Below, piece after piece: positions 10,995-45,790 of a stretch of DNA of 64,000 nt; within the stretch, counting starts at the first letter, position 1; every line of letters begins with the position of its first letter. Source of the DNA: Mobula hypostoma (Eukaryota). The notes beneath the pieces are model-generated. The model ran no database searches, was not told where the DNA came from, and saw only the letters and a program-made list of their open reading frames with translations. The translations under genes were made by a program, and so were the position numbers. The DNA lies in contig NC_086097.1 in NCBI RefSeq assembly GCF_963921235.1, positions 46,316,001 to 46,380,000 on the forward strand, given 5' to 3'.

Positions 10995-11420
10995 TAAAAC
11001 TTGCATGTCGTCTCTGGCAGGATTTGCAGGCCATTACTTCCTACAAGGCAAAACCTAACATATTGAATGGCGGTGATGCTTCACTACCAGATGAGCTCAA
11101 TGCCTTTTATGCATGCTTTAAAAGGGAGAATGACCTACCCCTGTGCAAATTCCTGCATCATCTGCTGACCTTGTATTCTCCGTCTTGGAGGCCAACACCA
11201 GAACAACTTTCAAGAGAGTGAACCCTCACAAGGTGTCAGGCCCTGATGGTATACCTGGTAGGGCACAAAATCTCTACCAACCAACAGGCAGAAGTGTTCA
11301 AGACATCTTCAATCTCTCACTGTTGCAGTTAGAGGTTCTCACCTGCTTCAAAAGGACAACAACCATACCAGTGCCCAAGAAGAGCAGGGCGAGCTGCCTC
11401 AATGACTATCGGCCAGTCTC
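10995..11420 (+). mobile_element. Rex1/Babar LINE internal fragment (RT N-terminal region)
   Basis: SLPDELNAFYA; KVSGPDGIPG; PVPKK...LNDYRPVSL. Confidence 0.85.
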
Positions 11421-11656
11421 GCTTGCTTCTGTTTCTCCAGATGATCTCACATCATTGAGGCTGTCTAAGATTAAGGCTCTGTGGAGGCCACACCATCTGA
11501 AACCATATTAAAAAAAATCTCGGGTGCCTAGAACTTTTGCACAGTACTTTACAAGTCATTTGATTTAATAAAGCTGCTATAAATGCATTTGGGATCTTTG
11601 CCATATGAATCCATGCACAAAGAACAAATGCAAAAAATTATGCCTCTGTTGCCATA

Positions 11657-12130: not shown

Positions 12131-12139
12131 TGGTTCTTA

Positions 12140-13960
12140 AAGATGACCACCAGCTGATGTTACTACCATTACGACACATCTTCAGTTGTGTACCTCGACA
12201 TCACTGGGTGTTTCGGCCTTTTATCACAAGACACCCTTAGCCGAGGCAGGCCCACCACAAGCTGATCAGACCTGGGTGTGTGTCACATGGTTAGTCTCCA
12301 GATGGTCACTTGGCAGCCCAGACAGCATCCCTTCTTTTCAGCCACAGCCAGTGGCTGCTTATTTCAGCAGCATTAGCAAGTGCTTTGATTGCCTTCCTAT
12401 GGGCCTGCCCTCCGACTCCTACTTCCCTCAGCAACCTTACGGTGGAACTAGCTACAAAGCCCCTGCACCCCACCTCAACTGGGCACACTTTTACATCCCA
12501 GCCTCGCTCCTCTGCTTCAACTGCAAGGTTGGCATATCACAGCCTTTTCCATTCGTAAGCCTCATCCACAGCATCCTCCCAGGGGACCGTCAGCTCAATG
12601 ATAAAGATGCACCGACAGGAGTTGGACCAAAGGACCAGGTCAGGCTGCAGGTTGGCCGTTGCAATTTCAGATGGGAAGGTAAGTTTCTGGCCTAAATCAA
12701 CATGCATTTCCCAGTCCCTGGCTGCACTCAGTGGGCATGAGTCGTGAGGCGAGGGGTTAGCCCCTGGTTTCTTTCCTTCCCGGATGAAGTATGGTAGTTG
12801 TGGGACCGTTGCCTGGGCATTGAGAGGCCTGGTGTTGGTGGTTACTCTCTTACCCTCAAGTTCAGCTGCCAAACACCTCAGCACTTGGTCATGTCGCCAG
12901 GTGTATCTGCCTTGTATTAGGCTAGTCTGGCAACTAACCAAGATGTGCTTGAGGGATGCCAGAACTGTGCACAGAGGACAGGCTGGATCCTCTCCCAGCC
13001 AAAGATTTAGGTTTGTAGGAGAGGGTAGGACATCATACGTTGCTCTGATGATGAAGCTCAATCTGTTTGGCTCTATGCTCCACAGCTCACTCCATGTGAT
13101 CTTCCTCCTCTCAACACCCTCTCACCTCATCCAGCAGCCTTGCTTGGCTTGGGATATTACCTTGGCATATCTGGCTGCTTCTTGGTGACGCACCTCCTCC
13201 ACCACCAGCTGCCGGCGTTCAGCTGTGGTAGCCTTTTGCCAGGTAGGTTTCATCACTCCAAGGCCAAAGCCTCCTCTGCCCTGTTGGACATAGCCCACTA
13301 TGTCCCAGTGTCAGAGGGCGGTTTCTGCGTCCAGTACTGCTGTGGCTGGGGTCTATTTCTTCCCTGTTGCTAGAGCAGGAGCAACGCCTCTTACGATTAG
13401 GTCCTGAGATTTTTTGAGTGTCATTTCCAGCCTTGCTTTGGTACATCTGTATTCCTCCATCAGGCTAGAAATTGGCAGAGAAAGGGCTCCGTTCCCGTAA
13501 AGTCCTATGCTGCTAAGGCATCTTGGTAGCCCAAGCCACTTCCTCACATGTGAGTTCACCAGCCTCTCCAGTCGATTTGCATGAGATAGTGACCTCATAG
13601 ATGGTAATTGGCCACATAAGTCTGGGGCAGCAGTCCAAACTGAAAGCACCAAAGCTTCAACCTCCCTGGGACAGCAGTGTTGTTGATTAGCTTGAGGCCA
13701 CTGATTGTATCCTGCCTTAGTTGTTCCACCTGCTCTGTGTCTCTGAGGTCTGCATTGTACCAACGTCCGAGGCTTTTGATGGGCTTCTCCAGGACGGTTG
13801 GTATTGGCTCAGCATTAATACAAAACCTTATGTCAGGGAGCCGGCCTTTGACAATTGAGATACTGCGAGACTTACTGGGATGATCTCCATTCGTGCCCAT
13901 TTGATGTTTCCCTGGAGTTTATCCAGCAGGCGTTCGGTGCATGCTTTTGTTGTTGTTATT
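12140..13960 (-). mobile_element. HERO-like (R2-group, restriction-like endonuclease) non-LTR retrotransposon, 5'-truncated and frameshifted
   Basis: PSKSRSISIVKG, KSLGRWY, RKWLGLPR RT-thumb motifs; CCHC knuckle CPLC...HILVSC; RLE PDLVLWS...IELTVPWE; stop at 12306. Confidence 0.88.
12171..12286 (-). ncRNA. Putative rearranged (non-circularly permuted) hammerhead ribozyme in the HERO-like 3' UTR
   Basis: GGGUGUC / GAAACACCC (stem III), UUGUG / CACAA-CUGAAGA (stem I + core), GGCCU / AGGCC, GCCUCGG / UCGAGGU, GUGACACA / UGUGUCGU. Confidence 0.7.
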
Positions 13961-14337
13961 GTTATTAATGAAGATAATGATTTAGTAATCAGCCTACATT
14001 ATTGAAAATTAGAAATCCATTGGCTAAAGTCTCACTTTATATTGTCATTTGAAAATAATGCATTGACAGAAAGAGTTTAAAAACTCCCACTGCAATGTTA
14101 ATACGTTTGCTTCATTCCAAATACTTTTCAATTCATTGAACTGATGGTGTCTTTTACAAGCACAGACTTGACACTTTTGAAATTCAATGATCAAAGAGTG
14201 TTTTCTTTTAAAATGGGTTGGGTGAGGCAATTCCTTGCTTAACCATACATTTCACATTCCTTTCCCTTCAGAAGATTATAGGCATCACACTATCTGTGTC
14301 TCAACCTGTTTGTACATCACATGCTGTAAACACTTAC

Positions 14338-44699: not shown

Positions 44700-45790
44700 G
44701 CTGAGCTTCCAGTGACCCCAAGCACTGAGGTCCGGACAGGCAGGAAGTGGAAGGCCAAGGATGCAGTGGACATGGCGAAGTCTCACCTGAGGCACAAGGA
44801 TCTGGTAGGGACAGTGGCATCTGGTCAGGCAGGGCAGTGCAGCTTCCCTTCAACCTGCTTTGAGAGGGCCCAGGGGAGGGACAGAGGTAGACACAAACTG
44901 GTCTAGGAAGAGGTGTGAGCAGCTCTCGAGGAAGTGCGTAAAACCAGGATGGTAGGAATGGGGCAGCAAGGAGTTTAGACAAGCTGGGAGGGTATGCTGA
45001 AGCAGATCTCTTGGTCCAACATCCTGGCAGGCAGAACCCAAGTGCATCAAGTTCATGATGCAGGCTGTGTATGACATCCTGCCTAGTTCAGCAAACCTTT
45101 TTGCTTGGGACAAAAGTGAGGCACCATCGTGTCCTCTTTCCCTGGCAGAGGGACACTAGAACACATCCTCAGCAGTTACCCAAAAGCTCTAAAGGAAGTC
45201 CACTACTTGTGGTGCCATGAACAGCTGCTGAAGGCAGAGGCAGAAAACATCTCCTCAGCCATTACCAATAGTATGCACCTCCACCAACCCAGACTGCCCA
45301 TAGCCTTTGTCAAAGCTGGAGACCAACCACAGCCTCAGCCCAGAGCACCAGACTTGAAGCAGATGGTCATCGTAGAACCAACAGCACCTTGGGGATATCA
45401 GACTGAAGAAGTGTTTGAGTGTAAGAAAGCCAAATACCAGGAGCTGGTATAGCAGTGCCAGAGACCGGGGTGGAGGGCATGATGCAAGCCTATAGAGGTG
45501 GGGTGTACAGGTTCTGCAGTAGATTTGCAGAACCTACTCTTTCCTTGGCATTATTAGGGTTGCAAAAAAAAAAACAACAACCATTGGCACCGTCACAGAG
45601 GCAGATGAGCGAGCCTCCAGATGGCTAGGATTAAGAGGTGTGACCTGTGAACCAGTGATGCTGGGACACAAGCTGAGGCCTGATCAACCTAGGCTGGGTT
45701 GCTTGGACAAGGGTGCCCAATGTCAAAAGATGCAAAACACCCGATGACAGCAGCTACATCACTTATGATGTGTCCCAGCATCACAGCAGC
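44700..45790 (+). mobile_element. Older HERO-like RLE LINE 3' fragment
   Basis: TGRKWKA..AV, KF..QAVYDILPS..NL, LEHILS, VE.T.PW, KKAKYQEL; structured 3' UTR homologous to 12171-12286. Confidence 0.82.

Follow-up and report, generated by a model that had tools for sequence, protein, structure and literature searches.

A hammerhead fold with a distinct strand order in the 3' untranslated region of HERO-like retrotransposons

We analyzed a 64,000-nt stretch of the Mobula hypostoma genome (NCBI RefSeq assembly GCF_963921235.1, contig NC_086097.1, positions 46,316,001 to 46,380,000 of the forward strand; hereafter, the window), in which a member of a HERO-like, non-LTR (LTR, long terminal repeat) retrotransposon family carries, on the minus strand and just behind its reverse transcriptase (RT)-endonuclease open reading frame (ORF), an RNA domain resembling the hammerhead ribozyme. 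Comparison of 21 distinct sequences indicates that the domain is a genuine hammerhead fold, kept by selection in the 3' untranslated region (UTR), the spacer between element units, and that its topology is new, fitting none of the six hammerhead block orders. The first-pass annotation of the window, made from the sequence letters alone, had described all canonical hammerhead elements as present and paired, in the order GUC, GAAA, CUGANGA, a layout that calls for pseudoknots and places two additional helices between A9 and stem II. Every string that it named was located on the minus strand where it had placed it, exact to the base. The covariation among the 21 sequences backs the strand order, the pseudoknots and the two inserted helices, and the elements are indeed all there and paired, with a core that is invariant except at N7 and helices that covary.

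Read 5' to 3' along the RNA, the domain begins with the 5' strand of a closing helix (P-a), a hairpin, the 5' strands of stem II and of a clamp helix (P-b), the trinucleotide N-G-A, the 3' strand of stem III with U-H17, after which the cut is predicted, and the 5' strand of stem I. An A-rich linker then leads to the 3' strand of stem II, GAA, the 5' strand of stem III, NNN-GA-N, the 3' strands of P-b and stem I, CUGANGA and finally the 3' strand of P-a. P-a, the hairpin and stem II are consecutive, with no unpaired nucleotide among them. The parts in the window are as follows.

12306-12308 (minus strand): TGA that terminates the RT-endonuclease ORF and lies 19 nt ahead of the domain; WLWLKRRDAVWAAK, the encoded C-terminus, is matched in homologues.
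12171-12286 (minus strand): whole hammerhead-like domain, 116 nt; matches the descriptor and covariance model R1 (125.6 bits, E 7.5e-31), the latter by construction because it is among the six seed sequences of R1.
12279-12286 (minus strand): 5' strand GUGACACA of the closing helix P-a, paired with 12171-12178; 8/8 pairs change on both sides.
12253-12278 (minus strand): hairpin between P-a and stem II, with the loop CUGAUCA, which includes the palindrome UGAUCA; 9/9 pairs covary.
12248-12252 (minus strand): stem II 5' strand GGCCU, with G10.1 at 12252, upstream of the cleavage block and paired with 12215-12219.
12240-12247 (minus strand): 5' strand GCCUCGGC of the clamp helix P-b, paired with 12192-12199; 7/8 pairs covary.
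12237-12239 (minus strand): UAA, the non-bulged side of a putative kink-turn-like loop; N-G-A in the family (columns 76-77, G in 17/21 and A in 19/21).
12230-12236 (minus strand): stem III 3' strand GGGUGU plus C17; cut predicted between 12230 and 12229.
12225-12229 (minus strand): stem I 5' strand UUGUG, paired with 12186-12190; 6/6 aligned pairs covary.
12220-12224 (minus strand): A-rich linker AUAAA, running straight from stem I to stem II; 2-7 nt long and A-rich in all families.
12215-12219 (minus strand): stem II 3' strand AGGCC, identified by pairing and covariation.
12212-12214 (minus strand): G12, A13 and A14 of the core (20/21, 21/21 and 21/21).
12206-12211 (minus strand): stem III 5' strand ACACCC, identified by covariation.
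12200-12205 (minus strand): AGU-GA-U, the bulged side of the putative kink-turn-like loop (columns 120-121, G in 16/21 and A in 20/21).
12192-12199 (minus strand): P-b 3' strand GUCGAGGU, identified by covariation.
12186-12190 (minus strand): stem I 3' strand CACAA, identified by covariation although absent from the aligning model.
12179-12185 (minus strand): CUGAAGA, C3 to A9 of the core, assigned from the core columns of the 21 sequences.
12171-12178 (minus strand): P-a 3' strand UGUGUCGU, directly past A9, identified by covariation.

Metagenome contigs were scanned with the alignment of the element proteins, which yielded 69 related loci at 31-67% protein identity. In 43 of these the protein match extended to the C-terminus, and the sequence past the stop codon was extracted for 39 of the 43. 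A simple descriptor (stem III 3', U-H, stem I 5' ... stem II 3', GAAA, stem III 5' ... stem I 3', CUGANGA) matches 20 of these 39 sequences, two of them weakly, in every case with the same strand order as in the window and with helix sequences that vary by family, such as stem III GACGU/ACGUC in L048 and GCGGU/ACCGC in L080, or stem II GGAGGA/UCCUCC in L104. With a strict descriptor comprising the core, stems I, II and III, plus the clamp helix, matches were obtained on the sense strand of 21 of the 69 loci, and once in the window, at the reported site only; the antisense strands of the 69 loci gave none, nor did 10 block-shuffles of 244,745 nt (2.4 Mb). Covariance model R1, built from six seed sequences and covering only nested pairing (P-a, P-b, stem III and the hairpin, four helices in all), adds divergent members missed by the descriptor; it gives 23 matches in 312 kb, a decayed second copy in the window at 45663-45776 among them, and reaches 20 of the related loci. 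Taken in union, the descriptor and R1 place the domain (116-123 nt) behind the ORF in at least 24 of the 69 loci, always on the coding strand.

In the 21 distinct rows, 93.2% of the cells of the full structure pair, compared with 60.7% in shuffles (none of 500 as high) and about 40% when the partners are slid as a control. The covariation check across copies that the first-pass annotation had proposed came out in favor of the fold, with all six helices covarying, 37 of 41 pairs changing on both sides, and the core conserved in the 21 distinct sequences. Stems I and II, which lie outside the aligning model, pair on their own in 91.3% of cells versus 65.1% in shuffles (0/500), with both sides changed in 9 of their 10 pairs; by stem, both-side changes affect 6/6 pairs in stem I, 3/4 in stem II and 4/6 in stem III. 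RNAalifold, run on the same model-fitted alignment (A5), returns the nested helices with 30 pairs, 28 of which show compensatory change, and folding of single sequences recovers P-a, P-b and stem III.

The nucleotides of the hammerhead core are nearly fixed: C3, U4, G8 and A9 are present in 21/21 sequences and G5 and A6 in 20/21, with N7 free (C in 6, U in 7, G in 2 and A in 6 of 21). H17 is C in 10, A in 7 and U in 4 of the 21 sequences and G in none, the pair A15.1-U16.1 is found in 20/21, C15.2-G16.2 in 20/20, and G10.1-C11.1 is G-C in 19/21. The three core deviations are confined to two visibly decayed copies. [quoted passage not shown]

The connectivity of these parts is that of no canonical hammerhead. 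P-a and the hairpin separate A9 from G10.1 in 21/21 sequences, the canonical three-way junction is missing, and the core is, on this pairing scheme, formally a five-way junction with two pseudoknots (stems I and II). The domain shares with hammerhead types I, II and III the nucleotides C3-A9 and G12-A14, the pairs A15.1-U16.1 and G10.1-C11.1, an H17 other than G and the three-helix polarity, but differs from them in that none of stems I-III is open or capped by a simple loop, and in having a five-way instead of a three-way junction.

The closest published relative is type-SGC (HRIMA-1). Eckert et al. (2023, PMC10085705) treat the hammerhead as built of three blocks, S, G and C, none of which they take to be divisible, and report SGC, CSG and GCS as new orders; type-SGC, for which cleavage is shown, has a short linker between stems I and II and one more helix that connects the other sides of these stems. 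As type-SGC is presented there, the present domain resembles it in the order of cleavage block, GAAA block and CUGANGA, in the conservation of all core nucleotides, in the two pseudoknots, in the stem I-stem II linker of 2-7 nt, and in P-b as the helix tying the other sides of stems I and II. The stem II 5' strand of type-SGC directly follows A9, whereas here it lies upstream of block S, together with the clamp strand. Thus, blocks S and G are intact and in order but block C is split, and the domain is not type-SGC; furthermore, two helices stand at A9/G10.1, and both clamp strands reach stem III via a conserved loop. The two also differ in origin, type-SGC having been described from metatranscriptomes in association with hairpin ribozymes and the present domain lying in the 3' UTR of a eukaryotic retrotransposon, and in the evidence for cleavage, which is experimental for type-SGC and predicted from sequence here. 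In terms of strand connectivity, the present domain amounts to a type-SGC hammerhead that has been circularized and re-opened at A9/G10.1 through an added helix. A true type-SGC, with stem II formed by the sequence just past CUGANGA, was considered and rejected: in every family this sequence pairs far upstream, with the P-a strand, and it is not complementary to the strand before GAAA.

The domain breaks the enumeration rule of Eckert et al. (PMC10085705), as set out there, by which the CUGANGA block is inseparable from the stem II strand that follows it. Because this block is split here, the catalytic core may tolerate helices at A9/G10.1, and searches based on the six block orders would miss such natural hammerheads. 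In the literature searched (openly licensed PMC and bioRxiv texts, without the supplements of Eckert et al.), we found no description of a split CUGANGA block or of a hammerhead with a kink-turn, and the term "type-SGC" is confined to a single paper; a 2026 paper (PMC13725137) still cites Eckert et al. and two other reports as the known exceptions to types I-III. At the gathering threshold, Rfam 15 gives no match in the window and none in 20 related loci (111.6 kb), and no hammerhead or hepatitis delta virus (HDV)-like match was obtained around the domain or the unit junction at E values up to 10 or 5. Of the comparisons that the first-pass annotation had suggested, the one with Rfam gives no matching Rfam 15 family, and the one with published rearranged hammerheads gives a resemblance to type-SGC, from which the domain departs by its split block C.

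The kink-turn consensus consists of a C-stem, a 3-nt bulge, tandem sheared G.A/A.G pairs and an NC-stem. The loop joining stem III to P-b has G-A on both strands and three unpaired bases on the stem III 5' side, and we infer it to be kink-turn-like, with stem III as the C-stem and P-b as the NC-stem; the window copy has lost the G of N-G-A in this loop (UAA). If the RNA bent sharply at this loop, P-b could return alongside the stacked stems III and II and reach the distal ends of stems I and II, where it could act as a clamp replacing the usual loop-loop contact. A fold-back geometry of this kind has been flagged as a puzzle for some type-SGC members (PMC10085705).

The explanation that we favor, with moderate confidence, is that the domain self-cleaves after H17 and processes element RNA longer than one unit. 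The cut is predicted to fall between 12230 and 12229 in the window, and a ribozyme located between units would release unit RNAs from concatemers or read-through transcripts. The hammerheads of retrozymes, and those described in the repeats flanking Penelope-like elements, occupy a similar position between units.

The arrangement of genomic copies bears on this explanation. Full-length 5' ends were defined as those of all 26 matches in the window's genome that extend into the unit's first 21 nt. Of these, 23 abut an upstream 3' tail, which differs in length and includes the whole domain in some cases and only 50-110 nt in others; only 3 of the 26 look bounded by host DNA at the 5' end. A linear RNA with a fixed 5' end predicts host-bounded full copies; most simply read, the layout points to templates exceeding a single unit, either concatemers or circles, or to an RT that regularly switches from the 5' end of one RNA to the 3' end of another. 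The junction of 23 of 26 units to an upstream 3' tail also implies that the ribozyme sits between units. Two arrays in the window's genome consist of a 3' fragment, a precise junction (...TCAAAC/TGAATATCTGG..., the slash marking the junction) and a full unit, with periods of 3,755 and 3,679 nt. In the metagenome loci L052, L054 and L078, the end of an ORF or an upstream partial copy is followed by the domain and, 200-250 nt further on, by the start of the next ORF, and seven assembled contigs show head-to-tail terminal redundancy. The tandem partners are 96.6% identical over 903 nt and 97.5% over 356 nt, compared with at most 94.8% and 95.2% to other copies; being closest to each other, they point to a single insertion event or a local duplication.

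An extension of the processing model, which we put forward only tentatively, is that the element, an autonomous one, replicates via circular or concatemeric RNA processed by a hammerhead, much as has been proposed for retrozymes. The hammerhead would be of a seventh connectivity, with a split CUGANGA block, a five-way junction at the core and its own kink-turn and clamp helix, the unit RNA being religated and the RT starting internally and crossing the unit junction. A fixed internal start running past the junction would give insertions made of a 3' fragment plus a full unit. In the favored explanation, too, about 27 base pairs (P-a, II, P-b and III) would hold the two halves together after the cut and would favor religation or circularization.

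Several observations weigh against cleavage and processing. Reverse-transcribed 3' fragments of cleaved RNA would begin at the cut, and taking this as a proxy, none of 30 genomic copies starts there; their 5' truncation points are scattered, with at least 11 beyond the examined flank, and no upstream partial unit that was examined begins at the predicted cut either. Cleaved linear RNA thus leaves no footprint as a template, an absence that religation of halves held by ~27 bp would explain. In hammerheads, the A9/G10.1 position adjoins a metal-binding site, and helices inserted beside it could impair activity; helices between A9 and G10.1 are absent from the literature searched. Stems I and II are short (4-7 bp), the energy of the single-sequence fold is unremarkable (z -1.0), both GAs of the kink-turn consensus are present in only 12 of 21 aligned rows, and the tandem partners could stem from template jumping or local duplication. 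Contigs of the public runs X1, X2, X9 and X10 on L005:1100-1860 bridge the predicted cut, which speaks neither for nor against cleavage because assembled contigs cannot show RNA ends.

The main rival to processing by self-cleavage, to which we assign a minor but substantial probability, is a protein-recognition scaffold of hammerhead fold or ancestry whose task would be to bind the element RT close to the stop codon, thereby serving cis-preference or the selection of templates, with no productive cleavage in vivo. Its position fits such a role, given that the domain lies 0-25 nt from the stop codon in nine families, that of the window included, and P-a overlaps the stop codon in L040, L055 and L062. 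The scaffold also agrees with the derivation of genomic copies from RNA uncut across the site (0/30 start at the cut), and R2 3' UTRs are described as binding their protein through pseudoknotted RNA (PMC12222951). However, a scaffold leaves unexplained why 13 core positions are fixed with N7 alone free and why G is avoided at H17, and the priming site is more plausibly sought in another conserved motif, distinct from the domain and located at the very 3' end of the element.

The same proximity to the stop codon could alternatively reflect a translation-coupled switch, an unlikely possibility, in which terminating ribosomes would unwind P-a and the hairpin, and cleavage would remove the 3' tail only from untranslated RNAs (or vice versa), which would separate messenger RNAs from templates. 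In many families, the stop codon is overlapped by the P-a 5' strand or lies within ~20 nt of it, and the cut would part the ORF from the terminal motif; on the other hand, the domain stands 56-377 nt past the stop in other families and ~1.5 kb past it in L070. The latter locus and L072 (L070:4993-5098 and L072:537-642) belong to a distant family (37% identity) with a unit of ~6 kb and internal tandem repeats, in which the domain lies ~1.5 kb past the stop and ~1 kb before the next ORF, so that the domain is not always beside the stop codon. Finally, that the hammerhead likeness is a chance feature of an ordinary structured 3' UTR is extremely improbable: although there is no Rfam 15 hammerhead match even at E up to 10 and the single-sequence fold energy is non-significant, Rfam models are unable to represent the present strand order, the descriptor finds nothing in 2.4 Mb of shuffles or on antisense strands versus 21 sense matches, and core identity and covariation hold across families.

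If active, the domain would be the first hammerhead found linked to R2-like non-LTR elements with a restriction-like endonuclease, a group known for HDV-like ribozymes; no published link of hammerheads to R2-like elements was found in the literature searched. HDV-like ribozymes occur at the 5' end of R2 and other non-LTR elements (PMC13725137, citing Eickbush 2010 and Ruminski 2011). According to that description, they share with the present domain a non-LTR host with a restriction-like endonuclease and a proposed role in processing of the co-transcript and in aiding translation, but they belong to another ribozyme class, lie at the 5' end and cut at their own 5' edge. Cervera and de la Pena (2014, PMC4209133) reported minimal hammerheads in the repeats that flank Penelope-like elements (PLTRs). 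As reported there, these resemble the present domain in their inter-unit or terminal position in an autonomous retroelement, in full copies flanked by a partial upstream copy, and in palindromic loops, with dimers possible in both. Penelope-like elements differ in their telomerase-like RT, GIY-YIG endonuclease and minimal type I motifs thought to work as dimers, whereas the present element encodes a restriction-like endonuclease and its domain is large (116 nt) and self-contained. A search of 20 loci of the present clade gave no HDV-like match. A discontinuous hammerhead in the 3' UTR of rodent Clec2 genes, outside retrotransposons, reportedly has its substrate and enzyme strands far apart and a canonical topology, and shares with the present domain the 3' UTR position and an unusual connectivity.

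The domain widens the range of hammerhead forms and hints at how the element handles its RNA, and its many natural variants with strong covariation are available for biochemistry. The 23 of 26 tail-joined units suggest that RNA longer than a unit, or circular RNA, serves in replication, in a class of elements whose templates are commonly taken to be simple linear transcripts.

The hairpin between P-a and stem II has a feature of its own. Its loop letters are kept in 13-17 of the 21 sequences, and the palindromic hexamer varies yet stays self-complementary, being UGAUCA in most families, UGUACA in L055 and UGGCCA in L054 (window 12262-12270, L055:3037-3148 and L054:2344-2454). This suggests that two element RNAs could dimerize through a kissing-loop contact.

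The host element was characterized from a longer copy, the ORF of which contains an RVT_1 domain (E 2.4e-17). Seven aligned homologues share, past the RT, invariant C..C..H..C columns followed by R-P-D ... E-x-T-V-P-W-E ... K, a pattern that identifies a zinc knuckle (CCHC) and a PD-(D/E)XK restriction-like endonuclease in the layout of the R2/R4/NeSL/CRE/HERO group. HERO elements are described as largely non-specific in insertion (PMC4640811), and the present family has both the RT, CCHC and PD-(D/E)XK endonuclease and mostly non-specific insertion, the 3' flanks of 29 copies being different. The first-pass assignment to a HERO-like element agrees with the domain layout and variable flanks, which make the family a candidate member of the HERO clade. 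Among the species with named protein homologues are many ray-finned fishes, as well as a lamprey and a lancelet, and a search of viral contigs for a relative of the element protein found none. The family is abundant in the window's genome, with 40 matches scored, at 92-100% identity, among 108 candidates. In 29 copies of this genome, a conserved 3' end is followed by unrelated flanks, with no poly(A). Differences among copies of the same genome are mostly CpG decay and are therefore uninformative on selection on the RNA.

The window copy is a dead, 5'- and 3'-truncated member of this multi-copy non-LTR retrotransposon. The ORF end at TGA 12308-12306 that the first-pass annotation had taken as the stop is genuine, with the frame HWLWLKRRDAVWAAK* (also given as SSHWLWLKRRDAVWAAK); full-length homologues terminate alike, and because homologues of ~1,170 residues share this C-terminus, the domain starts 19 nt past a genuine stop codon. 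The 3' truncation point lies at ~12131, whereas in 29 other copies the 3' UTR extends a further ~68 nt to the conserved end, so that ~165 nt lie beyond the predicted cut in the family. The first-pass figure of ~90 nt, given for the window copy, falls short of this. The first-pass argument that the element's 3' end cannot simply be set by cleavage stands. The other features of the element and its relatives in the window are as follows.

12309-13989 (minus strand): degraded, 5'-truncated ORF remnant, matching residues 599-1160 of homologue P0004 (tblastn), with frameshifts and stops.
12131-12170 (minus strand): retained remainder of the 3' UTR; the last ~68 nt of the family, including the conserved terminal motif, are absent.
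45663-45776 (plus strand): second, decayed copy of the domain, from a divergent element (R1, 60 bits, E 4e-13).

The core of the copy at 45663-45776 is broken, with CUUAUGA and an A in place of G12, and an ORF remnant upstream of it (44736-45512, plus strand) shares 29% identity with P0004. Two further stretches resemble the RT weakly, at 23-25% identity to P0004: 5026-6000 (minus strand) and 11191-11472 (plus strand), which represent remnants of other, unrelated retroelements.

Outside the hammerhead domain, several further regions of the element are conserved. A terminal motif, GGGAU-N-N-AACAUC-N-AGUCCUA ... AAAC, occupies the last ~35 nt (L005:1820-1856, L047, L037 and L141-L161), is conserved across subfamilies and separate from the ribozyme, and likely serves as the start signal for reverse transcription. 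The first flanking base past the 3' end is T in about two-thirds of the copies. The first ~100 nt of the unit, past the tail-to-head junction (L106:6322-6620, and L138-L161 in the window's genome), are strongly conserved between subfamilies and contain two short hairpins with GAAAG-type loops (...CAGUGAC-UGCUG-UGAAAGG-GCAGC-UGAC...CCAGG-GAAAGA-CCUGG-UGAC...), with no Rfam match; this region may act as a promoter or in translation, or it may be an RNA that binds protein. In the distant relatives L053, L081 and L099, the first ~100 nt past the stop contain tRNA-like strings (GGUAGUGGUUAGAG...GGUUCAAAACCC) that replace or precede the ribozyme domain; a tRNA identity for such strings in some 3' UTRs was rejected because ARAGORN calls no tRNA in 11 loci. 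Beside the truncated copy in L005, the segment 1104-1187 has a contig depth in the thousands in runs X1 and X2 and probably derives from another, far more abundant repeat.

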